A stretch of DNA of 64,000 nt from Adhaeribacter terreus (GCF_042657365.1 NZ_JBHSKT010000002.1:454034-518033), one strand, 5' to 3'; shown: positions 26,495 through 52,492, counted from the stretch's first letter. Notes: generated from the sequence alone by a model not told the origin. Numbers and translations: made by a program.

Positions 26495-26582
26495 AGAGAG
26501 GTGTCCGAGTGGTTGAAGGAGCACGCCTGGAAAGTGTGTATACCTCAAAAGGGTATCGTGGGTTCGAATCCCATCCTCTCTG
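26495..26582 (+). tRNA. tRNA-Ser (anticodon GGA), long variable arm
   Basis: Acceptor stem AGAGAGG/CCTCTCT. D-loop GAGTGGTTGAA, anticodon loop CT-GGA-AA, T-arm GTGGGTTCGAATCCCAT. 88 nt; the 3' CCA is not encoded. Confidence 0.85.
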
Positions 26583-26597
26583 CTGAAATTAGAAAGT

Positions 26598-26740: not shown

Positions 26741-27220
26741 TCAATTACTCTCGAAAATAGTCATTTCCGGCCATAGACTATTGAATTCTACCAGAAAATC
26801 CTGAACCAATTCTTTGCTGTTGCTTACGATCACATTTTCATGGTTGTAGAGCGCGGCGCTGCGGGTCCAGTTGTAACTTCCGGTAATCAGTAATTCATTA
26901 TCTATTAAGGCGAATTTGTGGTGCATGTGGTTGCGCGTGTTATCGGTGCGCACGGCAATTCCGGCTTGCGCCAGTTGCCGGATATCAGAGCCAAGATCGA
27001 AGAGTTTTTCGTTATCGGTCAGGATTCTGATGTTGATGTTTTTCCAGTGCGCTTTCAGAATTGCGTTCGTGATCTGGTCATCGGAAATGGTGAAGACGCA
27101 GATCTTGATGGAATTTTGCGCGTTTTCGATGGCAGAAATAATGGCTTGCTGACAATCGGTTCCGGGGCTGAAATACGCTTTGTTGATGGCTTTTTTTGAA
27201 GATTTGAATACGGAAAACAT
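26741..27220 (-). CDS. Phospholipase D-family (Nuc-like) single-HKD nuclease
   Basis: HMHHKFALIDNELLITGSYNWT contains the HxK(x4)D(x6)GSxN motif. 159 aa. Confidence 0.75.
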   Translation of the reverse strand: MFSVFKSSKKAINKAYFSPGTDCQQAIISAIENAQNSIKICVFTISDDQITNAILKAHWKNINIRILTDNEKLFDLGSDIRQLAQAGIAVRTDNTRNHMHHKFALIDNELLITGSYNWTRSAALYNHENVIVSNSKELVQDFLVEFNSLWPEMTIFESN

Positions 27221-27222
27221 CT

Positions 27223-28014
27223 TTATTGCTCCAAGGCTTTTAGGCGGTTATTTAATTGCATTACGGTTTGCTCCAGCATATTTAGGCGGTCTTCGAGCTG
27301 CGTCGGCGCTTTTAAACGGGTACTGAAAACGCCGCGCACTTCCCATATCTCCAGAATTTCGGTAAACGGTATTTCGCTCAGTCCATAATCCGGATTATCG
27401 GCTTTAAGTTTTAATTTTCCTTCGGCCGTAACTTCCTGAAGTCTTCTTACCAAAAAGCTGCTTTGTAACACGAGAATATAAACCAAGCCTGGCATTAAAG
27501 CATCATAAGCAGACGGTTCGACCAATTCTGCCAGTAACAGATCGCCGTTAAAAATGCCGCACTCGCGGTATTGCATTTCGGAACCGGTGTGCTCAAAGGC
27601 CCGGCCAATGCTTTTAAACGTTACCGGAAAATGAACTACCGGTAGTTGCTCTAAGAACGTTTTTTCATTCCGGTGGAAAATATATTCCTGGATATTTTCG
27701 GCATTTACCAGCACGGTTTCGGGAGCGAGGCTGGTAAATGCTACTTTTATGAGCGACGGCGCATTTTTTAATTCCTGCTTGTAAAGGTCGAAGCCATAAA
27801 GCTCGTTTACGGTCAGTTCTTTGGTGAGCAGCAGGTCTATAGAAACGCCGAAATGCCGCGCGATCTGCACTACAGTTTCCATTTTGGGCTCGGAACGGCC
27901 TTCTTCATACGCTCCCACGCTGGGACGGGCTAGGTTGAAGAGCTGCGCGAAACCCGCCTGGCTCAAATTTTTGACCGTCCGGATCTTCTTGATATTTTTT
28001 CCAATAAAAGACAT
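27223..28014 (-). CDS. XRE-family HTH regulator fused to LexA-like S24 peptidase domain
   Basis: N-terminal HTH (LSQAGFAQLFNLARPSVGAYEEG). C-terminal TGSEM...NGDLLL...LVRRL resembles the S24 Ser/Lys-box region, with Arg in the Lys position. Confidence 0.6.
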   Translation of the reverse strand: MSFIGKNIKKIRTVKNLSQAGFAQLFNLARPSVGAYEEGRSEPKMETVVQIARHFGVSIDLLLTKELTVNELYGFDLYKQELKNAPSLIKVAFTSLAPETVLVNAENIQEYIFHRNEKTFLEQLPVVHFPVTFKSIGRAFEHTGSEMQYRECGIFNGDLLLAELVEPSAYDALMPGLVYILVLQSSFLVRRLQEVTAEGKLKLKADNPDYGLSEIPFTEILEIWEVRGVFSTRLKAPTQLEDRLNMLEQTVMQLNNRLKALEQ

Positions 28015-28260: not shown

Positions 28261-28335
28261 TCCCCTTGAGGGGAGTTAGAGGGGTGTAAATTGCAATCGT
28301 GATAACGCCCCCTCCGGCTCCCCTCAAGGGGAGAG
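28261..28335. repeat. Inverted pair of GC-rich hairpin repeat (CTCCCCTTGAGGGGAG...GAGGGGTG)
   Basis: TCCCCTTGAGGGGAGTTAGAGGGGTG ... CCCCTCCGGCTCCCCTCAAGGGGAGAG. Confidence 0.7.
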
Positions 28336-28408
28336 AAAGAAGCAGCAACTTTATTTTGCCACCTCCCGGAATGGGAATTTGTGTTCCGAACCTTTAAAAT
28401 TTTCAAGC

Positions 28409-28843
28409 ATGAACAATCCTTACTTTGCCAAAGTGAAGGCTTATTTACAGGACCTGCACTTTCATATTTCGCATGAGAACCCGACTGATGGCGTTTTGGT
28501 GGTAGATAAACCCGAAGCTGGCATTCAGAACCTGGTAATTGGTTGCGCCGATCCGCTGCTTATTATGGAACAGCACATTCTGGATCTGCCGGTTTTAACA
28601 ACAAAAGTTTTGCAAAGTCTGCTGCAGAAGAACCGCGATATTATTCACGGCGCTTTTGTGCTCGACGAAACCGGTCGCAAACTGATCTTCCGCGATACGC
28701 TGCAACTGGAAAAACTGGACCTCTGTGAAATCGAGGCTTCTTTTAATTCCCTGGCGTTGCTGCTGAGCGAGTATTCTGAACAATTAATTGAATTTTCAAA
28801 AATTAAAGTAAACAGCTATGAACATATTCCGTCGCATATTTAA
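28409..28843 (+). CDS. YbjN/YjfI-like (putative chaperone-like) protein
   Basis: About 145 aa and overlaps the PspA start by 26 nt. This placement is typical of yjfI-yjfJ-type pairs. Confidence 0.45.
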   Translation: MNNPYFAKVKAYLQDLHFHISHENPTDGVLVVDKPEAGIQNLVIGCADPLLIMEQHILDLPVLTTKVLQSLLQKNRDIIHGAFVLDETGRKLIFRDTLQLEKLDLCEIEASFNSLALLLSEYSEQLIEFSKIKVNSYEHIPSHI

Positions 28844-29534
28844 AATAGGCCAGGCCGAAGCTCATTCCGCCATCGATCAGCTGGAAGACCCGATCAAAAT
28901 GACCGAGCAGGGAATCCGCGATATGAAAGAAGACCTGGAAAAAAGCCTGCGCGCCCTGGCCGAAGTAAAAGCCATGGCCATCCGTTCGCGCAACGATGCC
29001 GAAGCTTATCGCGTCAAATCGGATGATTACGAGCACAAAGCTATTTTGCTGTTGCAGCGTGCGCATAAAGGCGATCTGGAAACTTCGGAAGCGGACCGTT
29101 TGGCCGGCGAAGCGTTGGTAAAAAAAGAAGAAAACCTGAAACTGGCCGAACAGGCAACCGCCGATAAAGAAAAGTTTGAAAGATCGGTGCAGCAGCTGGA
29201 TCAGAACATTAAAACCCTGCGCAGCACTTTAAGCAAATGGGAAAACGAACTGAAAACCCTGAAAAGCCGTGTTATGGTAAGTAAAGCCACGCAAACCATT
29301 AACAAACAACTGGCCCAGATCGATTCTTCGGGCACAGTAGCCTTGCTGGAACGCATGAAAGAAAAAGTAGCCGTGGAAGAAGCTTTGGCCGAAAGCTACG
29401 GTGAAATTGCGAACGAAAGCCGCACCATCGATCAGGAAATTGAGAAAGCGCTGGAAAAAAGCCAGTCCCGTTCTACATCTGATAATGTTGCCGCTTTGAA
29501 AGCTAAGTTAGGTTTAACGGAAGCTTCGGAATAA
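28818..29534 (+). CDS. pspA: PspA/IM30 (Vipp1, ESCRT-III superfamily) protein
   Basis: MNIFRRIFKIGQAEAHSAIDQLEDPIKMTEQGIRDM start, coiled-coil throughout, 238 aa. Confidence 0.85.
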   Translation: MNIFRRIFKIGQAEAHSAIDQLEDPIKMTEQGIRDMKEDLEKSLRALAEVKAMAIRSRNDAEAYRVKSDDYEHKAILLLQRAHKGDLETSEADRLAGEALVKKEENLKLAEQATADKEKFERSVQQLDQNIKTLRSTLSKWENELKTLKSRVMVSKATQTINKQLAQIDSSGTVALLERMKEKVAVEEALAESYGEIANESRTIDQEIEKALEKSQSRSTSDNVAALKAKLGLTEASE

Positions 29535-29585
29535 ACCGGATCTTTGACTTTTTCGGCTTGAAAGCATACCGTTTATGGTAGCGTG

Positions 29586-29719
29586 AAAACACCCCTCCGG
29601 CTCCCCTCGAGGGGAGAATCTTCGCGATGAGTAATCTAAAACTTATAATAATAATGTATTGAAGATTCACATTAGCCGATACTCTCCCCTTGAGGGGAGC
29701 CGGAGGGGTGTTTTCACGC
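29586..29719. repeat. Inverted pair of GC-rich hairpin repeat
   Basis: GTGAAAACACCCCTCCGGCTCCCCTCGAGGGGAG ... CTCTCCCCTTGAGGGGAGCCGGAGGGGTGTTTTCAC are exact reverse complements. Confidence 0.75.
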
Positions 29720-30158
29720 TACCAAGTACATTTCAGATAATGAAGAATCCAATCATCCCATACCGGAAGGATCTGCGGGCCAAAGCCAGAGAATTGCGGA
29801 ACAACAGCACGTTGTCGGAAATCCTGCTTTGGAACGAGATCAAGAACCGGCAAATGGATGGCGTGCAGTTTCACCGGCAAGTACCCATGCTTGATTTCAT
29901 TGTTGACTTTTATTCGCATGAATTAAAAATCGCTATCGAAATTGATGGTAAAAGTCATGACGATAAAATGGAATATGATGACCTGCGTCAAAAGCAACTT
30001 GAGGCTTACGGTGTAATATTCATGCGTTTTGATGATATGGATGTGAAGCGGAATTTGCGGTGGGTGCTGGATGAAATTTGGGAACAGGTTCTGGTTCTGA
30101 AGAAGCATTTTTCCGATGAGCAGGCAAAACACCCCTCCAACTCCCCTCAAGGAGAGAG
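29681..30158 (+). mobile_element. Candidate miniature element: DUF559 gene bounded by ~33-bp terminal inverted repeats
   Basis: Left TIR at 29681-29719 and right TIR at 30126-30158 (AAAACACCCCTCCAACTCCCCTCAAGGAGAGAG) in inverted orientation. It is inserted between pspA and the nfeD-flotillin pair. Confidence 0.35.
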
Positions 30159-30168
30159 TTCGCAGTAA
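29740..30168 (+). CDS. DUF559 endonuclease-domain protein (very-short-patch-repair-like fold)
   Basis: LRNNSTLSEILLWNEIKNRQMDGVQFHRQVPMLDFIVDFY...IAIEIDGKSHD is the DUF559 signature. The annotated ORF ends are encoded by the flanking repeats (SPLEGSRRG / NSPQGES). Confidence 0.7.
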   Translation: MKNPIIPYRKDLRAKARELRNNSTLSEILLWNEIKNRQMDGVQFHRQVPMLDFIVDFYSHELKIAIEIDGKSHDDKMEYDDLRQKQLEAYGVIFMRFDDMDVKRNLRWVLDEIWEQVLVLKKHFSDEQAKHPSNSPQGESSQ

Positions 30169-30266
30169 TAACCCTAAGTTAAAGGAAAAAGTCTAGTGAA
30201 CATTTAAGAAAAACAACTATAGAATTTATAATTCATCATTAAAAATTCATCATTACCCAACTGCCT

Positions 30267-30911
30267 ATGACCGAACTTTTACAAGCTGCCGTGGCGCCGG
30301 CAAACATCATTCCTACCACCTTAATGGTGCTTATTATAATGTACTGGGTTTCGGTGATTATTGGCCTGCTGGATTTGCAAGCGTTCAATATTGAGATCGA
30401 AAAGGATTTTCACATTGATACCCACGTAGATGCGCACCATGAATTTTCGGTGGCCTGGCTCAACAATGTGCTGGCATTTTTCAACCTCGGAAGGATACCG
30501 TTTATGGTGTTCATGAGTTTCCTGGTGTTGCCGTTCTGGGTGCTGGCCATTCTTACCGTACATTACGCACCTTTTCTGCCGGCGGGCATCGCGTTTTTAT
30601 TGCTTATTCCGAATTTATTCCTGAGCCTTTTTATTGCCAAAGCACTTACTACGCCTTTCGTGAAAATGTTTGCGGCGCTAGAAAAAGAACACGACAGCAC
30701 GGTTACCATCATCGGGAAAGTTTGTACGGTTTTGTTGCCGGCAACTTCAACTGAAATGGGACAGGCTTCCGTGAAAACCGATGCGGCGCCGCTTATTCTG
30801 AACGTGAAAACCACTCGCGGTGCTACTTTGAAAAAAGGCGATACGGCGCTGGTAATCGATTATCTTCCTGAAAAACAGCTTTATTTAATAGAACCTTACG
30901 AAACAATTTAA
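30267..30911 (+). CDS. NfeD/YqiJ-like membrane protein with C-terminal OB-fold
   Basis: N-terminal TM helices and a C-terminal beta-rich TIIGKVCTVLLPA...LKKGDTALVIDY segment. It lies 4 nt upstream of the flotillin gene, like yqiJ-yqiK. Confidence 0.55.
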   Translation: MTELLQAAVAPANIIPTTLMVLIIMYWVSVIIGLLDLQAFNIEIEKDFHIDTHVDAHHEFSVAWLNNVLAFFNLGRIPFMVFMSFLVLPFWVLAILTVHYAPFLPAGIAFLLLIPNLFLSLFIAKALTTPFVKMFAALEKEHDSTVTIIGKVCTVLLPATSTEMGQASVKTDAAPLILNVKTTRGATLKKGDTALVIDYLPEKQLYLIEPYETI

Positions 30912-30914
30912 TCT

Positions 30915-33086
30915 ATGATTGCACAATTATCCTGGACTATCGTTGGCATGCTGGCGGTAATACTTTTCGGCCTCATTGCCATCGTCGTAAAAATGTACCA
31001 GAAGGCCATTCAGGGCGAGGCGCTGGTACGAACCGGTTTCGGCGACGCCAAAGTTTCCTTTTCCGGCATCTTCGTAATACCCATCATCCACAAGCTGGAA
31101 GTAATGGACATTACCCTGAAAACCATCGTGATCTCGCGTACGGGTTCGGAAGGGTTGGTTTGTAAAGACAACATGCGCGCCGATATTAAAGTGAACTTCT
31201 TTTTGCGCGTAAACAAAACCCCGGAAGACGTCATGCAGGTGGCCCAAGCTATTGGCTGTAAACGTGCTTCAGACCAACACGCGCTGGAAGGTTTGTTCGA
31301 TGCGAAATTCTCCGAAGCCTTGAAAACGGTTGGTAAGCATTTTGAATTTGTGGACCTGTACCAAAGCCGCGACGAATTTAAACGCCAAATTTTGCAAGCC
31401 ATCGGCACCGATCTGAACGGCTATGTTTTAGACGACTGCGCAATAGATTATCTGGAGCAAACACCGCTTACCGCGCTAAACGAAAACAACATTCTGGATG
31501 CGGAAGGTATCAAGAAGATCATCGACCTCACGGCGCAGCAGAAAGTCCAGGCCAATTTAATTGAGCGCGAAAAGCAGAAAACCATTAAAAAGCAGGACGT
31601 TGAAGCGCAGGAAACCATTCTGGAACTGGAGCGCCAACTTGCCGAAAACGAAGAAAAGCAGAAGCGTGAAATTGCCAACATAAAATCGCGCGAAATGGCC
31701 GAAATGGAAAAAGTGCGTTACGAAGAACGCCTGAAAGCCGAAAAAGCCCGCATTGCCGCCGACGAAGAAATTAAAGTTGCCGAGCAGAATAAAGAACGTC
31801 AGATCCTGGTGGCTGAGAAAAGTAAACTGCGCACCGATGCCGTAGAAACCGAGCGCGTAGAGCAAGCCCGCATGCTGGAAGTAAATGAACGTGAGCGTAT
31901 TGTGGCCTTGGCCCAGATAGAAAAAGACAAAGCCCTGGAAGAAGAACGCAAGAATATTCAGGCCATTATCCGCGAGCGTGTGGTGGTTGAAAAAGCTACG
32001 GTAGAAGAGGAAGAGCGTATCAAAGATACCAAAGCTTTTGCCGAAGCAGAACGTACCAAATCAGTGGCCATTAAAAACGCCGAAAAGGAAGCCGAAGAAG
32101 CGCTGGTGAAAGAAATTAAGAGTGCCGAAGCTGCCCGTCAGGCCGCCGAGTTCAGAGCCAAGCAATTGCTCATCGATTCGGAAGCGGAACAAGCTTCTGC
32201 GAACAACCGAGCCCAGGCCATAAAAATGATGGCCGAAGCGGAAGCTGCTCAAGCCGCTGCTATCGGTTTATCGGAAGCACGTGTGATGGAAGCCAAAGCC
32301 GAAGCACATCAGAAAGAAGGCGAAGCCGAAGCCGTAGTGATTGAAATGCAGGCCGTTGCAACTGCCAAAGCCACCAAAGTAAAAGCCGAAGCGCAAGCCG
32401 AAGCCGACGAAAAAGTAGGAATGGTAGCGGCTAAGATTACGAAAGAAAAAGGTATTGCTGAAGCTGTTGTGGTGGAGAATTTAGCTGCTGCTACCGAGAA
32501 AAAAGGTCTGGCCGAAGCCCGCGTAATCGGCGAGAAATTTACTGTAGATGCGCAAGGAATTGAGCAGAAAGCCGAAGCTATGAAAAAACTGGACGGCGTT
32601 GGCAAAGAGCACGAGGAATTCAAACTGCGTCTGGACAAAGACAAGTCTATTGAACTGGCGCAGATCAACATTCAGAAAGACATTGCCGCCGCGCAGGCCG
32701 AAGTTATTTCCGAAGCCCTGAAAGCTGCGAAGATCGATATTGTGGGTGGCGAAACGATGTTCTTCGACCAGATCGTAGGCTCGATTACCAAAGGCAAGCA
32801 GGTAGATCGTCTGGTTGGGAATTCCGAGGTTTTAGGGTCTGTAAAAGATACGTTCTTCCACGTAAATGGCAACGGAGAAGTAGATTTCAAAATGAACCTG
32901 CAGCGCTTCATCAACCAGTTCGGCATGAACTCCGAAGATGTTCGCAACCTCAGCGTTTCCGCCTTATTGCTGAAGATGATGACCAATGCCGATGATTCTA
33001 CTAAAGCTGCTTTGAAACAATTAACTTCTACTGCAAACGCGATGGGAATTGCTGATAAAGCGGTACATAGTTTTGGTTTGAATTAG
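30915..33086 (+). CDS. Flotillin/SPFH (band-7) family protein, YqiK-like, with long Ala/Glu-rich coiled-coil extension
   Basis: N-terminal TM plus SPFH domain (GEALVRTGFGDAKVSF...KTIVISRTGSEGLVCKDNMRADIKVNFFLRV), then about 450 aa of EA-rich coiled coil. Confidence 0.8.
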   Translation: MIAQLSWTIVGMLAVILFGLIAIVVKMYQKAIQGEALVRTGFGDAKVSFSGIFVIPIIHKLEVMDITLKTIVISRTGSEGLVCKDNMRADIKVNFFLRVNKTPEDVMQVAQAIGCKRASDQHALEGLFDAKFSEALKTVGKHFEFVDLYQSRDEFKRQILQAIGTDLNGYVLDDCAIDYLEQTPLTALNENNILDAEGIKKIIDLTAQQKVQANLIEREKQKTIKKQDVEAQETILELERQLAENEEKQKREIANIKSREMAEMEKVRYEERLKAEKARIAADEEIKVAEQNKERQILVAEKSKLRTDAVETERVEQARMLEVNERERIVALAQIEKDKALEEERKNIQAIIRERVVVEKATVEEEERIKDTKAFAEAERTKSVAIKNAEKEAEEALVKEIKSAEAARQAAEFRAKQLLIDSEAEQASANNRAQAIKMMAEAEAAQAAAIGLSEARVMEAKAEAHQKEGEAEAVVIEMQAVATAKATKVKAEAQAEADEKVGMVAAKITKEKGIAEAVVVENLAAATEKKGLAEARVIGEKFTVDAQGIEQKAEAMKKLDGVGKEHEEFKLRLDKDKSIELAQINIQKDIAAAQAEVISEALKAAKIDIVGGETMFFDQIVGSITKGKQVDRLVGNSEVLGSVKDTFFHVNGNGEVDFKMNLQRFINQFGMNSEDVRNLSVSALLLKMMTNADDSTKAALKQLTSTANAMGIADKAVHSFGLN

Positions 33087-33108
33087 GATAGCGTTTTTGG
33101 TAACATGT

Positions 33109-33324
33109 AAACACCCCTCCGGCTCCCCTCAAGGGGAGAGTATCGACTAATGTAAATAACCACCCCCAACACCTCCTTGAAAAGGAGGGGAGCTGGAAAA
33201 TGCTAAGTTCTTTTGTTTGCTTTTTTATAGCTGACTGCAGAAAACGGTATGCTTTTTCGCTCAAAAAGTCTGCTAAAAACAGTGAACCAAAAGCTCCCCT
33301 CCTTAACAAGGTGGGGTAGGGTGG
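33109..33324. repeat. Cluster of GC-rich hairpin repeats (one unit of main family plus inverted pair of a related unit)
   Basis: 33109-33144 is AAACACCCCTCCGGCTCCCCTCAAGGGGAGAG. 33160-33196 and 33292-33324 are mutually inverted (CCACCC..CCTCCTTGAAAAGGAGGGGAGCT). Confidence 0.65.
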
Positions 33325-33354
33325 TTGATTTTCAATTGCTTAAATATTTCTTAA

Positions 33355-33780
33355 ATGTCCACTTTCCGCTATAGTATCTGCGATCCATTCTCTCCGGAAA
33401 TTATTGAAAAAGGATCAATTGATAAGGCAGGCTTTTTAAAGGTTTTCCATGAATTTCCCTGGGAAGAAATGTTGCACCAAATGGAAGAAGCTGAAAACTC
33501 GGTTTCCGGGAAGGATATTCACTATTCGCCTTCTTTGGAAGTTGAGAACAGAAGCAATAAAAATGGACTGTCCATTTCAGTTGTAGATGGGAAAGATGAA
33601 CCGGAATTTTACATCTTTTATAAACGGCCTGAAATTAGAAAATACCTCTTCGGATTCATTCAGAAAATGGATGAAAACTTTGTGTCGGATAGAACAAGCC
33701 AAACCAAAGCAGATGCGCTGGCTGCCATTAATGCGCTGTTTGACAATGATCTTGCCCTACTGAAAAGCCGTTGGGGTTAA
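33355..33780 (+). CDS. Hypothetical protein (141 aa)
   Basis: Clean ORF immediately upstream of the giant ATPase; no recognisable motif. Confidence 0.4.
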   Translation: MSTFRYSICDPFSPEIIEKGSIDKAGFLKVFHEFPWEEMLHQMEEAENSVSGKDIHYSPSLEVENRSNKNGLSISVVDGKDEPEFYIFYKRPEIRKYLFGFIQKMDENFVSDRTSQTKADALAAINALFDNDLALLKSRWG

Positions 33781-33839
33781 TTCCTCATTTCCGCTTTTAC
33801 TTTGACTTTTTACCCTAAATACCCTATCGTTTTTACCTT

Positions 33840-36800
33840 ATGAATACCAACTCAACTGCGGCAGAAACAACAACTTCCAACGTGCAACTGGAAAGCGGAA
33901 CTTACGAAATTCTGCGGGGACGTTTGCAGGAGAACAGCCGGGAATTGCAGCAGCGCATGGAGCAACTGAACCAGGAACGGAAGCATGTTTTCGGGGCCAT
34001 TGAAACGGCGCTGTTGGGTACTGAACGGATCACGACGGAAAACAACTGCATTCCCTGGGATATGGTGCCGGTTGGTTCTTCGTTTTTGTTTGGTTACAAC
34101 GTGGTGATCGGGTTGAAAAGTGAGATCGAATTGGCGGACGTTTTCAGCGTGTATGGGTATGCGGACCGCACGTTTCATCCGAAGGGTTTGGAGCTGATAA
34201 ACGATACCGTTTTTGCCGAAGATTTTAAGAAGCTTTACAAGTATTACAAAAATACTCAGTTCGTAAAATTCGCCATAACCGGTACCAATTTGTTCATGGT
34301 TTTCCGGATCGGGAAGGGGGTGAACGATATTAAAACGTTTAAGTGGGTTATTAACGGCGATTCTATAACTTACCTGGATAACCGCAGCGACCACGAGTTT
34401 GTTTACCCCACGCAGCATGATTTTTCCTGGAAACGGCCCACGCGGGAGGCACACCGGAAAGGCAAGTATCCGCACGTTTCCATTGAAGATAAAGTGTTCG
34501 TGGAAACCGTTGGCGGCGACCTGACCATTAAAATTGAAGACAATACCGAAAGCGGCCAGGGAATTTATTCCGAAGAAGTAGAAGATAAAGACCAGACCCT
34601 GGACGACTCCGAGATTTATTACGCCATTATCGGCAACATTATTATTCTGAAGATCCGGCCGTACCGCGAAAACAAGTACCGCTACATCGTTTACAATTCT
34701 AAAATGCACACGGCCCGGCGCATCGATGCGCTGGAAGAATGCTGCATTATGCTGCCCGATAACCAAGGCATTATTTACGCTTACGGCTACTACCTGCAGA
34801 CCGGCGATTTCAAGCAGTTCGAGAACAACCTTCGGGACATGATCTTTGAAAAACGGATCGCATCTCCGAACGGGGAGGATTTCCTGTACGTGTTCTACAA
34901 CAAGGAAGCCGGAACCTACCTGCTGCTGTCGTACAACCTGATCAGCCAGAAGATCGAAAATCCGATCGTTTGCCACGGGTACGCCATTTTCGAGAACGGC
35001 GAATTATGCTTTTTCCGGGCCGATAACGAACCGAAGAAAAACCACGCCATTCAGGTGTGGCAAACGCCTTACGTGAGTCCGGATTATACCTTGCCGGTTA
35101 CGCAGGAATCGTATGTGTACAAGATCGGCAACAAAGATATTGTGCGGGCCATGGCCGAAAGTACCGAGCTGCTTACGCTGCTGAACAAAGACGATTCTTA
35201 CAGCAATTTGTACCTCGACCTGATCAAACGTACCACCGATATTCTGGATGGTTATCACTGGCTTTCGAAGGAGGAAATTTTTAATCTGGCGCAACCGTTG
35301 GTCGCGATCCGGCAAACGGCTACGGCGGCGGTAGATGAATTTGAAAAGGTTGTCAGCATCCGAAAGAATACCGAAAAGCAAATAAACCTGGTACTCGACA
35401 AAGCGGAAGCGCTGGTGCAAAGCATTAAAATTCAGAAGGCGGCCGAGATCAATACGTTTGTGAAATACCTGGCGGAATTGCGTGCCTTGCGCGGCGAAGT
35501 AATTTCGCTGAAAGAATTGCGTTACGCGGACTTGGAAAAAGTGGCAACCTGCGAAAATAAGTTGGCGGAAACCACGCAGGAAGTTTCGAATAATTGCGTG
35601 ATTTTCCTGCTGAAACAAGACGCGCTGCAGCCTTATGAAGTGAGAGTAAAAAACCTGGAAAACGGTATCGAATTGGCGCAAAAAGTCGTGGAGATCGATG
35701 CGACGGAGAAGGAAATAAATGCGGTATCGGCGGAACTGGAAATGTTGATCGAAGTGGTTAGCAACCTGAAGATCGAGGATGCCACTCAAACTACCAGCAT
35801 TATCGATGCTATTTCAGCCATTTATTCCGGATTTAACCAAACCAAAGCGGCGCTGAAACGGAAGAAAAAAGCGCTGCTGAGCGTAGAAGGAAAAGCCGAA
35901 TTCAGCGCGCAGCTAAAGCTTATCAGCCAGGGTGTGATCAATTTCCTGGACCTCTGCGATACGCCGCAAAAGTGCGAAGAATACCTGGCCCGTTTAATGG
36001 TGCAGCTGGAAGAACTGGAAGGTAAGTTTCCGGATTTCGAAGAATTTGTGGACCAGATCAGCGTGAAGCGGGAGGAAATTTACAACACCTTCGAAACCAA
36101 AAAAGTAAGCCTGCAGGAAGCCCGCAACAAACGCGCTAACAGCCTGCAGCAATCCGCCGACCGGATATTGAAAGTGGTGCAAAGTCGGGTAGCCAAACTT
36201 ACCTCCGTAAACGAGATAAACGGCTATTTTGCATCGGATCTGATGATCGAAAAGGTGCGGAACATTACCGAAGAATTGCTGCAGTTGGGCGATCCGGTAA
36301 AAGCCGATACCATTCAGAGCCGCCTGAAAACGGTGCGGGAAGATGCAGTTCGGCAGTTGAAAGACCGGCAGGAATTATTCGTGAACGGCACCGATATTTT
36401 AAAGCTGGGCGACCATCATTTTACCGTAAACACGCAGCCGCTGGCGCTCAGCATTGTGAACAAGGAAGGCGAAATGTTCTTCCACCTCACCGGCACCAAC
36501 TTCTTCGAAAAAATTACAGACCAGGAATTCTTAAGTTACCGTGAAGTTTGGGAACAGACTTTTGTGTCGGAAAATGATACCGTTTACCGCGGCGAATATC
36601 TGGCTTATAAAGTGCTGGAAGCAGCCAAAGCGAAGCTGGAAAAAAACGTTGCCGCCACCGACGATTTTTTGGATTTAACCATCGAAGAGCTGTACCGCTT
36701 GAGCTTGGCGGAGCTGACGGATTACGTGCAAAAGTTCATGGCAACGCGCTTCAACGAAGGTTACGTGAAAGGCGTGCACGACCATGACGCTGCACTTATT

Positions 36801-38783
36801 TTACAAGCTATGGTGCGCTTAACCAAAACCGCCGATCTGTTGCGTTTCGATGCAAATGCCCGGGCTTGTGCCGCTTTGTACTGGCAAGCCTTCGCGCCGG
36901 CAAACCGCAAAAATGATCTTAACCACCAGCTAAAAGGCGTAGGCGCAATTCTACAGGTTTTCCCGAACACGCACCAGTTCGATGCCATTAAAACGGACCT
37001 GGAAGAGGAACTGAAAACCTTCATTTCCGAAACCAGTTTATGCGAAGGTGTGGACACCACGGATGCTGCGGCTTACTTGTTTTATGAACTCACCCGCGGC
37101 GATCATTTCGTCATCGATCTGGAGGCTGCCACACTTTACAATGCTTTCCTGGATTTCCTGAGAAACAATAAAGTGCAGGCAACTTACGAGGCTTCGGTGA
37201 AAGCGCTGGAGCAAAATCCGGCTTTGCAGTTTGCGCTGGTTCAGAATTGGGTGAAGGCTTTTGCGGGGCAATCGGAGCAGGCAGATAAAGGCGATTATGT
37301 GGCCGAAGCGGCGGTGCTTTTATTCACGCATGCCTACCAGCCGGACCGGGTAATTTCGGTTTCGTTGCGGGAAAAACTTTCCGGCTTCCGGGGTTCGCAT
37401 TCTTTAATTGAGGAGCAAAATTATCAGTTGCATTTCAATTCGTATATGAACCGGCTGCGGCATTACGAAGCTACGGTTGTGCCGGCTTTTAACCGTTTTT
37501 CGGAGCTGAAAAAGCAACTGACGCACCAGTTTGAAGAAGAGCTGCGCCTGAACGAATTCAAGCCGCGGGTACTGTCTTCTTTCGTAAGGAATAAATTGCT
37601 GGATCAGGTTTATTTGCCGTTGATCGGAGCGAACTTAGCCAAACAGATCGGCACGGCCGGCGAAAATAAACGCACCGACCTGATGGGAATGTTGCTCCTT
37701 ATTTCGCCGCCAGGCTACGGTAAAACCACCATTATGGAATACCTGGCAAACCGTTTGGGCATTATTTTTATGAAGATCAACGGTCCTGCGTTGGGGCACC
37801 AGGTTACGGCTTTAGACCCAGCCGAAGCGCCGAATGCAGCCGCCCGCGAAGAGCTGGAAAAACTAAACCTGGCCTTCGAAATGGGCGACAACGTGATGAT
37901 CTACCTGGATGATATTCAGCACTGTAACCCGGAGTTTTTGCAGAAATTCATTTCGCTTTGCGATGCTCAGAGGAAGATAGAAGGCGTTTACAAAGGCAAA
38001 AGTAAAACCTACGATTTCCGGGGTAAAAAAGTGTGCGTGGTGATGGCCGGAAACCCCTATACTGAAACCGGCGAAAAATTCCGCATCCCGGATATGCTGG
38101 CCAACCGCGCCGATATTTACAATCTCGGCGACATCATAGGTAATACGGAAGCAGCCTTCAAATTAAGTTACCTGGAAAATGCGCTGACCTCGAACAAAGT
38201 GCTGGCAAACCTGGCTTCTAAAAGTCAGCAGGATGTTTATGCGCTGGTTAAACTCACGGAAAGCGGAAGCCAGGAAGGTATTTCATTTGAAGGCAATCAT
38301 TCGCCGGAAGAACTGAACGAATACACTTCGGTGCTGAAGAAATTGCTGCGCATCCGGGACATTATTTTGCGGGTAAATCTGGAATATATCCGTTCTGCGG
38401 CGCAGGCCGAAGAATACCGTACTGAACCGCCGTTCAAGTTACAAGGCTCTTACCGTAACATGAACAAGCTCACCGAAAAAGTAATGCCGATCATGAACGA
38501 CGAAGAACTGCAAACCTTGATCTTGTCGCATTACGAAGGGGAGGCTCAAACATTAACGTCCGGCGCCGAAGCGAATATGCTGAAATTCAGAGAGCTAAAC
38601 GGTATGCTTTCGGAGGTAGAAAGTCAGCGTTGGGATGCTATTAAGGCTACTTACGTAAAGAATCTGAAACGCAAAGGCTTTGGGGAGAATAACCAGGTAG
38701 GGCAGGTGCTGGAGCAGATGGAGCAAATTTCTGGTGGGTTGATGGGGATTAAGGATGTGTTGGGGCGGTTTAGCCAGCAGTAA
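33840..38783 (+). CDS. Giant (1647 aa) protein with C-terminal dynein/midasin-type AAA+ (AAA_5) ATPase domain
   Basis: Walker A LLISPPGYGKTT (~37704-37730), Walker B VMIYLDDIQH, and VCVVMAGNPYTETGEKFRIPDMLANRADIYNL, the AAA_5 sensor/Arg region. The first ~1250 aa have no recognised domain. Confidence 0.8.
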   Translation: MNTNSTAAETTTSNVQLESGTYEILRGRLQENSRELQQRMEQLNQERKHVFGAIETALLGTERITTENNCIPWDMVPVGSSFLFGYNVVIGLKSEIELADVFSVYGYADRTFHPKGLELINDTVFAEDFKKLYKYYKNTQFVKFAITGTNLFMVFRIGKGVNDIKTFKWVINGDSITYLDNRSDHEFVYPTQHDFSWKRPTREAHRKGKYPHVSIEDKVFVETVGGDLTIKIEDNTESGQGIYSEEVEDKDQTLDDSEIYYAIIGNIIILKIRPYRENKYRYIVYNSKMHTARRIDALEECCIMLPDNQGIIYAYGYYLQTGDFKQFENNLRDMIFEKRIASPNGEDFLYVFYNKEAGTYLLLSYNLISQKIENPIVCHGYAIFENGELCFFRADNEPKKNHAIQVWQTPYVSPDYTLPVTQESYVYKIGNKDIVRAMAESTELLTLLNKDDSYSNLYLDLIKRTTDILDGYHWLSKEEIFNLAQPLVAIRQTATAAVDEFEKVVSIRKNTEKQINLVLDKAEALVQSIKIQKAAEINTFVKYLAELRALRGEVISLKELRYADLEKVATCENKLAETTQEVSNNCVIFLLKQDALQPYEVRVKNLENGIELAQKVVEIDATEKEINAVSAELEMLIEVVSNLKIEDATQTTSIIDAISAIYSGFNQTKAALKRKKKALLSVEGKAEFSAQLKLISQGVINFLDLCDTPQKCEEYLARLMVQLEELEGKFPDFEEFVDQISVKREEIYNTFETKKVSLQEARNKRANSLQQSADRILKVVQSRVAKLTSVNEINGYFASDLMIEKVRNITEELLQLGDPVKADTIQSRLKTVREDAVRQLKDRQELFVNGTDILKLGDHHFTVNTQPLALSIVNKEGEMFFHLTGTNFFEKITDQEFLSYREVWEQTFVSENDTVYRGEYLAYKVLEAAKAKLEKNVAATDDFLDLTIEELYRLSLAELTDYVQKFMATRFNEGYVKGVHDHDAALILQAMVRLTKTADLLRFDANARACAALYWQAFAPANRKNDLNHQLKGVGAILQVFPNTHQFDAIKTDLEEELKTFISETSLCEGVDTTDAAAYLFYELTRGDHFVIDLEAATLYNAFLDFLRNNKVQATYEASVKALEQNPALQFALVQNWVKAFAGQSEQADKGDYVAEAAVLLFTHAYQPDRVISVSLREKLSGFRGSHSLIEEQNYQLHFNSYMNRLRHYEATVVPAFNRFSELKKQLTHQFEEELRLNEFKPRVLSSFVRNKLLDQVYLPLIGANLAKQIGTAGENKRTDLMGMLLLISPPGYGKTTIMEYLANRLGIIFMKINGPALGHQVTALDPAEAPNAAAREELEKLNLAFEMGDNVMIYLDDIQHCNPEFLQKFISLCDAQRKIEGVYKGKSKTYDFRGKKVCVVMAGNPYTETGEKFRIPDMLANRADIYNLGDIIGNTEAAFKLSYLENALTSNKVLANLASKSQQDVYALVKLTESGSQEGISFEGNHSPEELNEYTSVLKKLLRIRDIILRVNLEYIRSAAQAEEYRTEPPFKLQGSYRNMNKLTEKVMPIMNDEELQTLILSHYEGEAQTLTSGAEANMLKFRELNGMLSEVESQRWDAIKATYVKNLKRKGFGENNQVGQVLEQMEQISGGLMGIKDVLGRFSQQ

Positions 38784-38807
38784 TTTTTGCGTCAAGGTTT
38801 AGAAATT

Positions 38808-38842
38808 GAAAGCCTGCAACAGCTCTGTTGCAGGCTTTTTTT
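38808..38842 (+). terminator. Rho-independent terminator after giant ATPase gene
   Basis: AAAGCCTGCAACAGctcTGTTGCAGGCTTTTTTT. Confidence 0.65.
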
Positions 38843-40316: not shown

Positions 40317-40613
40317 AAGCTGGTAGATAAGTTCTTTAACAATTGCCGCGGAAAAGGCTATCCGGATGCCATTACCAAAGAAGTCTGGCGGCAGGTAGAA
40401 TCGTTTGCTGGTTATTCGTTTTCTAAAACGCATTCTTCCTCTTTTGCCGTGGAAAGCTACCAGAGTTTGTACCTGAAAGTGCATTTCCCGCTGGAATTTA
40501 TGGTGGCCGTGATCAACAATTTCGGAGGCTTTTACCGTACTTGGGTATATGTAAACGAAGCCAGGAATGCCGCTTTAATACATAGCCCTATATCGTGCCA
40601 CCTGAGTTGCTGA
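40317..40613 (+). pseudogene. Internal fragment of DNA polymerase III alpha subunit (dnaE)-like gene
   Basis: Translation GKGYPDAITKEVWRQVESFAGYSFSKTHSSSFAVESYQSLYLKVHFPLEFMVAVI matches the conserved DnaE ...[37 protein letters not shown] region. Stops bound it on both sides. Confidence 0.6.
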
Positions 40614-41219
40614 AAATTTATACCTGATGGGAATGACTTGAATTTATCTTCGCGTTTTGCAGTAAGGAAAACCAAAAGCTTAAAATCCGCACCTTTTTCG
40701 GCTAGTATTTTTGCATAAGAATCTAATTGTTCAATTCCCTCTGTTGATGCTATCTTGCTTTCAATAATCACGTGAGAGTGACCCAAATTAATCTCCAGGT
40801 CAGTTCGCCTTTTCTGGGCAGCATAAATACTTTGAGTTTCAACGGTAGCTGAACCTATATTTTTATTCACAAGCTTCAACAGATTCAAAAACCGCTCTCT
40901 GAAAACTTTATCCGAATCCAGGCAGAAGGCAAATATCTCAGTAAGATAGTCTTCTAAGGGCCTGTTACTTGCCTTTAGGTGAAGATTAAAAAGCTTATTA
41001 AAGATTGGTTTCTTTACTTTCTAAGTTATTCGCTTACTTCTCCAAAGCCGCCAAAACCGTTCTAAAACTCTCCAATCCAGCTCCCAGATTTTCGATAATG
41101 TCCTCTGCCAAAACATCCGGATCGGGGAGGTTATCCAAATCAGCGAGGGACTGGGCTTTGAGCCAGGTGATGTCGAGGCTGGTTTTGTCGCGGGCTATCT
41201 GTTCCGGATTCTGATTCAT
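40532..41219 (-). pseudogene. Frameshifted gene of a putative restriction-endonuclease-fold (D...E-x-K) protein
   Basis: Two minus-strand ORFs, 41219-41034 and an open frame running 41024-40532, are offset by one base. The downstream part contains DLEINLGHSHVIIESK. Confidence 0.4.
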
Positions 41220-47084: not shown

Positions 47085-48269
47085 ATGAAAACCACAACTA
47101 CCCTTTTACACAGCATTCCAGCCGATCCGTTAACCGGCGCCATCTCCGTTCCGATCTACCAGACTTCCACTTTCGTGCAGGAAGCACCCGGCGTAAACCA
47201 GGGCTTCGATTATGCTCGTAGCAACAATCCAACCCGCAAAGTGCTGGAAGATTTAGTGGCGGTTCTGGAAGACGGTAGTAACGCATACGCTTTCGCAAGT
47301 GGTTTAGCTGCCATCGATGCCGTAGTAAAGGTGCTCGAAGCCGGCGACGAAATTCTGGCCGTAGATGATATTTACGGCGGCGCTTTTCGGCAATTCACGC
47401 ACATTTTCCAGAAATTCGGGATAAAAGTAACCTACGCCGATACCACTAAAGTTGAAAACGTTGTCGATGCGATCACGCCGAAAACCAGGCTGATCTGGCT
47501 CGAAAGTCCGACTAACCCAACGCTGAAAATTTCCGACATCCGTGAGATCGCCAAAATTGCCGAAGCCAATAATTGTTTGCTTTGCGTGGATAATACGTTT
47601 GCTTCGCCGGTAGGCCAGAACCCGATCAATTTAGGAGCAGATCTGGTGGTGCACAGCGCTACGAAATACCTGGGTGGCCACTCCGATCTGATCGCCGGAA
47701 TTGTAGTTACCAAGACCCCGGAGTTAGGCGAAAAAATCAAATTCATTCAAAATGCGTGCGGCACTATTTTAAGCCCTTTCGATAGCTGGCTGACCATTCG
47801 GGGCATCGAAACCTTGCCACTGCGTTTCGAGCGTCACAGTAAATCTGCACAGCAAATTGCTGCGTTTCTGACAAACTGCGAACTAATCCGAAACGTGTAT
47901 TATCCGGGTTTGATCGACCATGGAAATTACGAAATTGCAGTAAAGCAGCAGCGGCTTTTTGGTGGCGTAATTGCCTTCGATCTGAAAGTTGATTCGGCAG
48001 AATTAGCAACGGAAATCGTTTGTTCCACCAAGCTTTTTAAACTGGCAGAAAGTCTGGGAGGGGCGAAAAGTTTGCTGTGCCACCCGGCTACCATGACGCA
48101 TAAATCCATTCCCAGAGAAAAGCGCTACAATACCGGCGTAACCGATAGTTTGATTCGTTTATCAGTTGGTTTGGAAGATGCCGAAGACCTGATCGAAGAT
48201 TTGAAAACTGTTTTTAAAACGGTAGGGGAAAAGACGAAAAAACTCACACAAACATCCACTCAAAACTAA
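47085..48269 (+). CDS. Cys/Met-metabolism PLP-dependent enzyme (cystathionine gamma-synthase/beta-lyase family)
   Basis: SATKYLGGHSDLIAG PLP-lysine motif. 394 aa. Confidence 0.8.
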   Translation: MKTTTTLLHSIPADPLTGAISVPIYQTSTFVQEAPGVNQGFDYARSNNPTRKVLEDLVAVLEDGSNAYAFASGLAAIDAVVKVLEAGDEILAVDDIYGGAFRQFTHIFQKFGIKVTYADTTKVENVVDAITPKTRLIWLESPTNPTLKISDIREIAKIAEANNCLLCVDNTFASPVGQNPINLGADLVVHSATKYLGGHSDLIAGIVVTKTPELGEKIKFIQNACGTILSPFDSWLTIRGIETLPLRFERHSKSAQQIAAFLTNCELIRNVYYPGLIDHGNYEIAVKQQRLFGGVIAFDLKVDSAELATEIVCSTKLFKLAESLGGAKSLLCHPATMTHKSIPREKRYNTGVTDSLIRLSVGLEDAEDLIEDLKTVFKTVGEKTKKLTQTSTQN

Positions 48270-48276
48270 GTTAACC

Positions 48277-49542
48277 ATGGCAAGAAAGAATTTAACGATC
48301 GGCCTTTTTGGCTTTGGCTGCGTGGGTTTTGGTTTGTATGAAGTGCTGCACAAAACGCCGGGGCTGAAAACCACCATCAAAAATATCTGCGTAAAGCATC
48401 CGGAAAAAGCCCGGCCAATTGCGGCCGCAAACTTTACTTTCGATAAAAACACTATCCTTTCGGACCCGGAAATTAATGTGGTGGTAGAACTGATAGACGA
48501 TTCGGAGGTGGCTTTTGAAATTGTTTCCGAAGCTTTGAAAAACGGTAAAGCAGTGGTTTCGGCCAACAAAAAAATGATCGCGGAACACTTTCAGGAATTG
48601 CTGGATTTGCAGCGCGAATACCAGGTGCCTTTGCTGTACGAAGCGGCCTGCTGCGCTAGTATTCCCATCATCCGGAACCTGGAAGAATATTACGACACGG
48701 ATCTTTTGCAAAGTATTGAAGGTATTGTAAATGGTTCTACCAATTACATTCTGACCAAAACGTTTGCGGAAAACCTGAGTTATGAAACAGCTTTGCGCGA
48801 AGCCCAGGAAAACGGTTACGCGGAATCTGATCCGAGTTTAGATACGCAGGGAATTGATGCGAAGTACAAACTGCTTTTGCTGCTGGCGCACGCCTTCGGG
48901 CAAATTGTAAAGCCGCAGGATATCTTCAACTTCGGAATAAACAAACTCAGAGACCTCGACCTGCAATTCGCTAAGGAAAAAGGCCTGAAGATCAAGTTGG
49001 TGGCGCAGGCTTTCAAAAACGAAAACCAAAGCATTAGCTGTTTTGTATTGCCCAAATTCGTAAAACCCGGCGACAAACTTTTTGACATAGATGATGTATT
49101 TAACGGCATAATTACCCAGAACAATTTCTCCGATACGCAATTTTTTGTAGGCAAAGGTGCTGGCGCATTTCCAACGGCTTCCGCTGTTCTATCCGATCTT
49201 TCAGCCTTGACTTACGATTACAGATACGAGTATAAAAAGCTGAATCAGGCAGAAATCTTAACGATCAATAATGAGCTGGTACTAAAGGTTTTTCTGAGCA
49301 GCCGGGAAACCAAAACGCAGGTGCTTTTCACGTATTTTCATAAAGTAGAAGAATCGTATCGGAGCCAGGAAACCGGCTATCTTGTTGGATATATTAGTCT
49401 GAAGAAACTACAGCAACTTATTCAATTGGTTCCAGATGCCTCCGTTATTTTAATAGAAGCAAAGCCTGGTTTGAAAGATCAGAATCTGGTAACTAAAGTT
49501 GAGCTAGAACCAGTTTATGTATCTGATTCCTTAATCGTTTGA
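48277..49542 (+). CDS. hom: Homoserine dehydrogenase
   Basis: IGLFGFGCVGFG NAD site, VVSANKKMIAE, GIVNGSTNYILT, and ESDPSLDTQGIDAKYKLLLL. Confidence 0.8.
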   Translation: MARKNLTIGLFGFGCVGFGLYEVLHKTPGLKTTIKNICVKHPEKARPIAAANFTFDKNTILSDPEINVVVELIDDSEVAFEIVSEALKNGKAVVSANKKMIAEHFQELLDLQREYQVPLLYEAACCASIPIIRNLEEYYDTDLLQSIEGIVNGSTNYILTKTFAENLSYETALREAQENGYAESDPSLDTQGIDAKYKLLLLLAHAFGQIVKPQDIFNFGINKLRDLDLQFAKEKGLKIKLVAQAFKNENQSISCFVLPKFVKPGDKLFDIDDVFNGIITQNNFSDTQFFVGKGAGAFPTASAVLSDLSALTYDYRYEYKKLNQAEILTINNELVLKVFLSSRETKTQVLFTYFHKVEESYRSQETGYLVGYISLKKLQQLIQLVPDASVILIEAKPGLKDQNLVTKVELEPVYVSDSLIV

Positions 49543-49602
49543 TAAGAATATATGTTCTTTTTTAACTTTTGTAAGTGAGTTTGATAATTACTTATATGCT
49601 CA

Positions 49603-49638
49603 AAAAAGCCTTCCATACTAAAATGGAAGGCTTTTTTG
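49603..49638 (+). terminator. Rho-independent terminator after hom
   Basis: AAAAAAGCCTTCCATactaaaATGGAAGGCTTTTTT. It is flanked by A- and T-runs and could act bidirectionally. Confidence 0.55.
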
Positions 49639-50170
49639 ATGGCTAAGCAAATGCTATTACTGAATTTGAATAAACAGCAATAATTGAAATATATGAAGCA
49701 GCATTTCAATAATCTTTCTATTAATATCAGTGCGTCATATTCAACACTAAGTCAATAGTATCTATTCTATTTCTACATCTGGTAAAGTGCAATTGTAGAA
49801 CTTTAGAGGTTCAGTTTTATTCTTGAGAAATAAATCAATCATATATTGCTTAGAAAGTTCAAACCATTTGGTGATAAGATAAACCTTCGCACATTGGTGA
49901 AATTTTTTTTTGTTTTTTTTTTCATGGTAAAAAAAGGCTTTAATTTATTTCTGAAGCAGTTTTTAATATTGATTTACTGCCTTCTTAATATATCACATCA
50001 TAAAAAAAGCTGCAACACCTTCTAATAGGCACCCTTCTTGCATAAAGTGTATATGTAGGACATAAAGCTGATAATTTGATAACAATTTTACTAAAACCTG
50101 TTGCCTGTAAATGCTGATTAAATCTGCATTTATTACAAAATCAATTATTTACATTTTAATTTTTTCAATT

Positions 50171-50461
50171 ATGTTCAGGTCATTAGTAATTTTAGCAATT
50201 TCAGCCGTTTTGATGTTAAGTGGTACTGCTTGTTCTTCAACCATGAGAACAGCCGAAGGTCATAAATATAAGCCATTAACAAAATTTAATTTCCGGTTCA
50301 ATAATAACCAGGTAAGTTCTGCCTCGGTGTATAAACGTTATGTGGCGTATAATAAGCGTCAGGCGGCAAAGGGCAAAGTAAAACCGCAACAAATGGTTGC
50401 CAAAAAGAACGCTAAACCACAATCAACTACAGCTAAAAAAGGTTTGCTGGCGGTTCAATAA
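50171..50461 (+). CDS. Small Lys-rich secreted/lipoprotein-like hypothetical protein
   Basis: Signal peptide MFRSLVILAISAVLMLSGTAC, then a K-rich tail. It lies in the AT-rich island. Confidence 0.35.
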   Translation: MFRSLVILAISAVLMLSGTACSSTMRTAEGHKYKPLTKFNFRFNNNQVSSASVYKRYVAYNKRQAAKGKVKPQQMVAKKNAKPQSTTAKKGLLAVQ

Positions 50462-50781
50462 TATAATTCCAATTAATTTAATACCGGATCTGATTTTAGA
50501 TAGTTTCAGGCAATTGGCTTGAATCTGCTCTTCTATTCGGAGACAAAAATCTGGTGCTGGTGGTAGGGTTGAAGAAGGACTTTAGTATTAATAAAAACGC
50601 TATCTTTTTTGCATTAAAACTAACAGATAGCTCTTAAAACACAAAAAACGTACCGGCAAAGCCCGTACGCTTTTTGTGTAATTGATTTAATATTAAGGTT
50701 AAACGCAAAAATGAAGAAAATGGTTTTTTATGCTGATTCTTATAGCGTTTTTTACCAAAAGGGTTAACAACTTCTTCGAAA

Positions 50782-51417: not shown

Positions 51418-51487
51418 GCGTTGTCGTTTTAGAGCAGCCTTTTTAATAGTATAAGTGAAAGTGTTGTAATTGAAATTACGATACTTA

Positions 51488-52450: not shown

Positions 52451-52492
52451 GGCTGAATAATTGGGTGGACTTCAAAATCTAAAACAGAGGCT

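Follow-up and report, generated by a model that had tools for sequence, protein, structure and literature searches.

A PspA, flotillin and giant AAA+ ATPase gene cluster in Adhaeribacter terreus: a published operon class in which flotillin and YqiJ are the constant partners of the ATPase

Ravi et al. (mSystems 2024, PMC11237479; bioRxiv 2020) described, by comparative genomics alone, a bacterial operon class in which a CesT/Tir-PspA pair is joined to a YqiJ/YuaF protein, a transmembrane (TM)-Band-7 flotillin and a β-propeller/coiled-coil AAA+ ATPase. A HKD hydrolase is optional in this class, abbreviated flotillin-YqiJ(-ATPase) operons are more widespread, and the CesT-PspA dyad is found standalone too. 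Their supplementary table includes the neighbourhood of Dokdonia donghaensis ANH61663.1, with a divergent 'cHTH+Protease' gene. Here we analyze a gene cluster of this kind in Adhaeribacter terreus, a member of the Hymenobacteraceae in the Bacteroidota, within a stretch of 64,000 nucleotides (nt) (GCF_042657365.1 NZ_JBHSKT010000002.1:454034-518033; the window). A first-pass annotation of the window had put the cluster forward as an undescribed membrane-stress or membrane-remodelling module. The locus encodes CesT-PspA, YqiJ-flotillin, a propeller-helical-AAA+ ATPase and a divergent regulator of the cHTH plus protease-like type. It is therefore another member of the published class, for which a similar functional proposal had also appeared; it is already known in silico, though experimentally untouched, and the window holds no new kind of system. 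What our analysis adds is modest: a quantified synteny of the ATPase with flotillin, a MoxR-like motor, a regulator S24 domain that is probably non-catalytic, and selfish-looking insertions that split the A. terreus copy.

When one genome per GTDB species was searched with a pattern scan, at least 585 relatives of the ATPase were confirmed; the family has 984 representatives at 50% identity. The counts given here are for the best 80 of these at least 585 loci, which have 48-72% identity and span at least seven phyla (Bacteroidota, Planctomycetota, Verrucomicrobiota, Desulfobacterota, Clostridia, Kiritimatiellota and Omnitrophota). Their open reading frames (ORFs) were labelled by iterated hidden Markov model searches seeded from the window proteins; the denominators are the 58 loci with at least 3.5 kb of upstream sequence or the 56 with at least 7 kb. 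Flotillin lies directly upstream of the ATPase on the same strand in 55 of 58 loci, and YqiJ precedes flotillin in 54 of 58. PspA comes before YqiJ in 22 of 56 loci and CesT before PspA in 21 of 56. All loci with PspA upstream of the triad are from Bacteroidota (22/30, vs 0/26 in other phyla), and the XRE/S24 regulator is divergent and directly upstream of CesT in 21 of the 21 loci with CesT and in no other locus. Chance can by no means account for an arrangement seen again in dozens of species from several phyla, and the genes form a conserved functional neighbourhood. Based on these counts, the functional link between the genes is real and has two layers, a YqiJ-flotillin-ATPase triad that is nearly universal and an addition of regulator, CesT and PspA that is specific to Bacteroidota. 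The first-pass annotation had emphasized a pairing of PspA with the ATPase; the constant partner of the ATPase is instead flotillin/YqiJ, giving that pair priority over PspA as the partner to examine. Gene identities, domain architecture and cross-phylum synteny are what the analysis shows directly.

Spacer lengths, taken from mechanical ORF starts, are consistent with operons in the relatives. The median is 12 nt for CesT-PspA, 52 nt for PspA-YqiJ and 16 nt for YqiJ-flotillin; the PspA-YqiJ spacer does not exceed 30 nt in 9 of 22 loci, nor does the flotillin-ATPase gap in 9 loci. The two layers could nevertheless be two independent units that merely adjoin, one for stress made up of regulator, CesT and PspA and the other of YqiJ, flotillin and the ATPase, with no direct functional coupling in A. 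terreus. The 732 nt between them in this genome, filled by a selfish-looking DUF559 cassette and long hairpins, would fit such a reading, as would the occurrence of the core triad alone in most phyla and of the standalone CesT-PspA dyad elsewhere (Ravi et al.). However, adjacency and orientation have been kept over Cytophagia, Flavobacteriia and other Bacteroidota at 47-77% PspA identity, often with the short PspA-YqiJ spacers noted above, and the regulator never stands beside the triad without CesT-PspA. There is also experimental precedent for coupling of PspA to an SPFH protein, which in B. subtilis PspA needs for its delivery to the membrane (Scholz et al. 2021). Two uncoupled units are thus an unlikely explanation of the locus, and we favor a single module of two layers.

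The identity of the two membrane proteins had to be established through their orthologues, since direct searches were blank: neither window protein has a match of its own in Pfam or NCBIfam (Band_7 with the window flotillin, at E 0.01, was counted as a miss), and a sequence search of the PDB with both found no match. Profiles were therefore built from alignments of 40 orthologues each. The flotillin profile aligns with E. coli YqiK at an hhalign probability of 100% (E 6.6e-41) over 389 columns that include the SPFH region, where it is 30% identical to YqiK, and 4 of the 40 orthologues match Band_7 directly (best 3.3e-13). The 723-residue protein, which the first-pass annotation had called a flotillin and NCBI names 'flotillin family protein', is a flotillin on this evidence, with an N-terminal TM segment, the SPFH domain, a long Glu/Ala-rich coiled coil and a conserved C-terminal region. 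Likewise, the earlier yqiJ-like assignment holds, as the profile aligns with E. coli YqiJ at an hhalign probability of 96.9% (E 1.5e-10) and 17 of 40 orthologues match YqiJ_N directly. For the C-terminal soluble OB-fold domain of the NfeD family, 2 of 40 orthologues match Pfam NfeD (best E 0.0021), and the profile aligns with the YuaF structure 2k14 at E 0.1.

The ATPase matches Pfam DUF3686 over residues 35-473 (E 1e-190) and DUF7902 over residues 594-677, and has a single Pfam AAA region at residues 1285-1408, with hits to PF00004 (2e-7), AAA_5 (1e-5) and, partially, RuvB_N. The AAA_5 domain that the first-pass annotation had recognized does exceed its cut-off (25.9 vs 22 bits), but PF00004 scores higher. 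A dynein/midasin type, also assigned there, would have six concatenated AAA+ modules, while the 1647 residues contain one P-loop and one AAA+ fold. AlphaFold2 (AF2) models of residues 1-1000 and 830-1647 (pLDDT, the predicted local distance difference test, 79.9 and 82.1), made with 31-sequence cross-phylum alignments, gave the domain boundaries in Table 1. In Foldseek, the propeller resembles generic WD40, Kelch and clathrin terminal-domain folds (E about 1e-6) and the AAA+ module resembles Lon, RuvB, CbbQ, NorQ and ClpA (about 1e-5). The only P-loop (SPPGYGKT, 1289-1296), the Walker B motif (YLDD, 1355-1358), N1405 at the would-be sensor-1 position and R1423 at the would-be arginine-finger position are invariant across phyla. 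A Walker B of the D-D form occurs in DnaA too. In the model, a β-hairpin at residues 1379-1392 sits between α3 and β4, the pre-sensor-1 position, and the loop between β2 and α2 lacks an aromatic pore-loop motif. Given these nucleotide-binding motifs, the hairpin and the missing aromatic pore loop, together with an AAA_5-type core and closest fold similarity to MoxR proteins, the module is a plausibly active, MoxR/AAA_5-like single AAA+ domain. Neither a TM segment nor a nuclease domain was found in the protein. Among its orthologues, those of Planctomycetota and Desulfobacterota are 100-250 residues longer, up to 1906 residues (P0121-P0226; loci L023-L028, L034 and L040), one from Desulfobacterales HSG16 (P0130) carries ankyrin-repeat Pfam matches, and a 55%-identical member in a eukaryote protein set (P0197) is probably contamination.

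These features bear on the model of the first-pass annotation, in which the giant ATPase is a Vps4 analogue that uses ATP to disassemble the ESCRT-III-like PspA polymer directly. In its favor, pspA is part of this co-directional block in 22 of 30 Bacteroidota loci, often within 30 nt of yqiJ, and PspA has the ESCRT-III fold. Polymer disassembly is also common among AAA+ proteins, and a PspA disassemblase is missing in the field. The annotation was right that no bacterial PspA-remodelling ATPase is established; none has been shown experimentally, and a 2025 review states that a Vps4-like ATPase 'appears absent in bacteria'. At the molecular level the analogy is not supported, however. A β-propeller takes the place of the MIT domain at the N-terminus, there is no aromatic pore loop 1 between β2 and α2, a pre-sensor-1 hairpin is present, and the module is not of the classical clade of Vps4. 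Furthermore, the ATPase accompanies flotillin/YqiJ without an adjacent pspA in all 26 loci from other phyla and in 8 from Bacteroidota. Direct action on PspA in the manner of Vps4 is accordingly improbable, and flotillin/YqiJ remains the favored partner.

The Bacteroidota-specific genes were identified more directly. The first gene of the operon (28409-28843) matches Pfam CesT_Tir_1 (E 3.2e-52), and the exactly matching NCBI protein is named 'molecular chaperone Tir'; the first-pass label of YbjN/YjfI could not be upheld, as YbjN scored 17.7 bits, under the 22-bit cut-off, and YjfI/DUF2170 gave no match in Pfam. As in the operon class of Ravi et al., this gene is directly upstream of pspA. The PspA protein matches PspA_IM30 over residues 2-230 of 238 (E 1.9e-38) and aligns end to end with solved Vipp1/PspA chains (6zvr, E 1.2e-13), in keeping with a complete domain that has the N-terminal amphipathic helix and the α1-α5 hairpin architecture and bearing out its earlier placement in the ESCRT-III superfamily; mean column identity among 18 operon-linked orthologues is 62%. 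The divergent regulator (27223-28014) matches HTH_3 (E 6e-11), a helix-turn-helix (HTH) family, and Peptidase_S24 (E 1.4e-5). The Ser position in its GSEM motif varies among orthologues (S, L, A, P, D or N), and usually an Arg (VRRL) stands where the catalytic Lys of LexA is expected; we take these to be the catalytic positions of the LexA motif. As neither is conserved, the S24 domain probably serves in sensing or dimerisation and not in proteolysis. The small phospholipase-D-like (PLD-like) protein matches PLDc_2 (E 1.2e-30), with a readable HxK...D...GSxN motif. Five of the 80 loci have a homologue of it beside the regulator or PspA. Both the regulator and the PLD-like gene, upstream of the chaperone, are part of the system, the latter as an accessory member.

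Given the above, we consider it probable that the operon is a cytoplasmic-membrane stress or maintenance module of two layers; this applies to the general mechanism, and confidence in its single steps is lower. In the core layer, common to at least seven phyla, a YqiK-type flotillin anchored by its N-terminal TM segment and its YqiJ/NfeD-type partner would assemble into an SPFH oligomer at the membrane's inner face. This assembly may be where the giant ATPase docks, via its β-propeller and long helical arm, and its MoxR-like AAA+ module, presumably as a ring, would spend ATP to assemble, remodel or recycle the SPFH assembly. In the Bacteroidota layer, the CesT-like chaperone may keep PspA soluble and assembly-competent, and the flotillin platform would draw in PspA for sealing or reshaping damaged membrane, similar to the recruitment of PspA by the SPFH protein YdjI in Bacillus subtilis. 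The divergent XRE/S24-like regulator would control expression. Consistent with this proposal, the nucleotide-binding motifs of the ATPase are intact as well as invariant, its AAA+ fold is confidently modeled, and its N-terminus combines a protein-interaction propeller with a long helical region. PspA has also been reported with Band-7/FloT, NfeD and HTH regulators (Popp et al. 2022). We infer every physical interaction in the scheme, along with the ATPase substrate, ring formation, stress induction and co-transcription. More tentatively, the DUF3686 ATPase might be the ATP-driven remodeller that is missing for bacterial flotillin/SPFH assemblies, and in Bacteroidota it might also remodel PspA polymers recruited by flotillin.

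Several observations weigh against a two-layered membrane module. The loci counted are the 80 closest of at least 585 matches. The flotillin-ATPase gap is variable, exceeding 450 nt in 23 loci with unrelated small genes inside, and the ATPase genes of three loci (L016, L034 and L047) are orphans. In A. terreus itself the operon is interrupted twice, by 732 nt between pspA and yqiJ (the DUF559 cassette with hairpin-forming repeats) and by 753 nt, with an unrelated ORF inside, between flotillin and the ATPase, making co-transcription in this organism uncertain. We found no experimental paper on the DUF3686/PF12458 ATPase and no expression, interaction or phenotype data for any member. Finally, NCBI and Pfam name the ATPase a 'DNA repair ATPase'.

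That name raises the possibility that the locus is instead a DNA-repair or anti-phage defence system. Pfam describes DUF3686 as 'ATPase involved in DNA repair', RuvB_N matches in part over the P-loop region, and a DUF559 endonuclease and a single-HKD protein are at the locus. In other genomes, ParE toxin genes, DMP19-like genes and others of this sort have accumulated between flotillin and the ATPase. However, no gene of the system has a convincing match in PADLOC-DB 2.0 (best E for the ATPase 0.034); only the inserted DUF559 gene matches a model there (methyl-directed REase, E 4e-5), and DUF559 genes are in just 3 of 80 loci, at other positions. The constant partners of the ATPase are two membrane proteins, and no paper was found backing the DNA-repair label, which has its support in database names. 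A repair or defence role is for these reasons very improbable.

The DUF559 gene encodes a Vsr-like endonuclease (Pfam DUF559, E 3.3e-29). In the three other loci with such a gene (L005, L007 and L012), it is between flotillin and the ATPase. In A. terreus it is surrounded by inverted copies of a palindromic repeat with the core CTCCCCTCAAGGGGAG and a longer form, AAACACCCCTCCGGCTCCCCTCAAGGGGAGAG. Six copies are in the 64-kb window vs 0.22 expected, at 28261-28336, 29576-29725, 30126-30159 and 33097-33157, all of them in the operon's intergenic gaps, and copies that pair fold into hairpins whose arms reach 42 nt. By its appearance the repeat is a small mobile or REP-like element, and apart from one unrelated match it is essentially missing from the 80 related loci. 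The DUF559 insertion sites there do not have it, so it does not characterize DUF559 cassettes in general. The cassette is an insertion and not part of the system, and it is selfish-looking insertions that split the A. terreus copy.

The second interruption holds a 141-residue ORF (u141), which the first-pass annotation had listed in the block. It has no match in Pfam, NCBIfam or PADLOC, and a homologue is present in 1 of 80 loci, there downstream of the ATPase; u141 is a lineage-specific occupant of the variable flotillin-ATPase gap and not a core gene. This gap is a recurrent landing site, taking up unrelated small genes (for instance ParE toxin, DMP19-like, DUF3997 and DUF3592 genes) in L078, L001, L004 and 17 other loci, besides the DUF559 genes already mentioned. 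In five loci (L003, L009, L020, L061 and L071) the operon runs on directly downstream of the ATPase with genes for DUF4178, a lipoprotein-like protein, DUF350 and a TM-fused spermine/spermidine synthase. This set is the second type of PspA operon in Ravi et al., joined in these loci to the first; its genes are not in the window.

The features of the locus are collected in Table 1. All ORFs of the first-pass annotation were found again on the + strand where it had placed them, the ATPase ORF is 100% identical to an A. terreus protein, and eight neighbouring ORFs match consecutive A. terreus NCBI proteins exactly. Absent from that annotation were three genes, those for the DUF559 endonuclease, the XRE/S24-like regulator and the PLD-like protein. 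Its description of the block as tightly spaced is true in part: the chaperone gene and pspA overlap by 26 nt and 3 nt separate yqiJ from the flotillin gene, but the distance from pspA to yqiJ is 732 nt, and 268 nt lie between the flotillin gene and u141. The strong terminator it had placed after the ATPase gene was confirmed by reading the sequence, AAAGCCTGCAAC-agctct-GTTGCAGGC and then TTTTTTT, with a GC-rich stem of 9 bp (GCCTGCAAC/GTTGCAGGC), a 6-nt loop and a run of seven T at 38812-38842; an automatic terminator scan did not pick it up. Both thioredoxin-fold genes farther downstream encode TlpA/ResA-like proteins with signal-like N-terminal sequences, as expected of the secreted proteins they had been called, but no thioredoxin gene accompanies the ATPase in any of the 80 loci, and they are not in the system.

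Table 1. Features of the A. terreus locus (window positions; domains of the ATPase by residue)
Feature	Position (nt)	Strand	Size or residues	Remarks
tRNA-Ser(GGA) gene	26495-26583	+		directly left of the PLD-like gene
Small single-HKD phospholipase-D-like protein	26741-27220	-	159 aa	downstream of the regulator on the divergent arm
XRE-type HTH + S24 (LexA-like) regulator	27223-28014	-	263 aa	divergent from the chaperone
CesT/Tir-like chaperone	28409-28843 (mechanical ORF start 28379)	+	144 aa by NCBI start, 154 aa otherwise	
pspA	28818-29534	+	238 aa	Pfam PspA_IM30
Inserted cassette with DUF559 endonuclease gene and palindromic repeats	29576-30168	+		outside the system
Palindromic repeat copies, inverted, around the DUF559 gene	29576-29619, 29681-29725, 30126-30159			
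DUF559 endonuclease gene	29659/29740-30168	+	169 or 142 aa	
yqiJ-like	30267-30911	+	214 aa	YqiJ/YuaF-type, NfeD-like multi-pass membrane protein
YqiK-type flotillin	30915-33086	+	723 aa	
u141	33355-33780	+	141 aa	ORF without assigned function
Giant propeller-AAA+ ATPase	33840-38783	+	1647 aa	
ATPase, N-terminal helix			aa 19-51	AF2 model
ATPase, β-propeller	34008-35063		aa 57-408	AF2 model, Pfam DUF3686
ATPase, very long helices			aa 425-846	AF2 model; DUF7902 within
ATPase, small β domain			aa 854-891	AF2 model
ATPase, helical domain			aa 917-1235	AF2 model
ATPase, single AAA+ module, α/β core + lid	37689-38264		aa 1284-1475	AF2 model
ATPase, helical tail			aa 1489-1646	AF2 model
Intrinsic terminator	38809-38842	+		read directly from the sequence

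The tRNA-Ser(GGA) gene is the left boundary of the cluster, and Rfam gave nothing beyond this flanking tRNA. A scan for σ70-type promoters found 22 sites vs 16.1 ± 3.6 in shuffled sequence, not above expectation, and the Bacteroidetes -7 motif TAnnTTTG is in none of the intergenic gaps of the block; transcription units can therefore not be inferred from the sequence. Downstream of the thioredoxin genes, a short ORF at 40532-40888 (- strand) has a partial match to a PD-(D/E)XK nuclease (PDDEXK_4) and is possibly a gene fragment. At 48001-54000 the GC content falls to 0.38-0.40, compared with 0.43-0.50 in the rest of the window, and this region may be a foreign island.

The field has yet to establish how bacteria dismantle or recycle their PspA/Vipp1 and flotillin assemblies, and the DUF3686 family is the most obvious candidate for an energy-consuming part of such machinery. 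Were the remodeller proposal true, the DUF3686 ATPase would do for a bacterial membrane-repair machine what Vps4 does elsewhere, as a functional counterpart that is not homologous to it. The idea is already implicit in Ravi et al., to which the present analysis adds flotillin as the constant partner and the MoxR-like nature of the motor.

Comparison with known systems helps to define what is particular to this one. Like the ESCRT-III proteins and Vps4 of archaea and eukaryotes, the locus encodes an ESCRT-III-fold polymeriser near an AAA+ ATPase, which here is MoxR/AAA_5-like, has a β-propeller rather than a MIT domain and tracks flotillin. In the MoxR-type pairs CbbQ/CbbO and NorQ/NorD, the ATPases of about 260 residues work with VWA-domain adaptors; the A. 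terreus ATPase has about 1280 extra N-terminal residues, and no VWA gene was found in the neighbour families conserved at the 80 loci. PspA is likewise functionally tied to an AAA+ protein in E. coli, but PspF is a σ54 enhancer-binding transcription factor inhibited by PspA, with no propeller and no link to flotillin. The bac cluster of Pseudomonas aeruginosa (PA3732-PA3729) was considered as an instance of this operon and rejected, being a different PspA operon type, with DUF2170/YjfI. In B. subtilis pspA-ydjGHI, PspA is coupled genetically and functionally to the SPFH protein that brings it to the membrane; that protein is of another SPFH subfamily, has YdjG/H as partners, and comes with neither a CesT-like chaperone nor an AAA+ ATPase. 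E. coli yqiJ-yqiK and B. subtilis yuaF-floT, each an NfeD-type membrane protein gene with a flotillin gene, are the homologous pair in the same order with a short spacer. Unlike A. terreus, E. coli has no ATPase, PspA or CesT-like gene adjacent to yqiJ-yqiK, and the A. terreus flotillin is 170 residues longer than YqiK. Closest of all is the class of Ravi et al., with the same genes in the same order, the divergent regulator, the optional HKD/PLD gene and the same phylum, to which the A. terreus locus adds the DUF559 cassette with its palindromic repeats and the 141-residue ORF before the ATPase.

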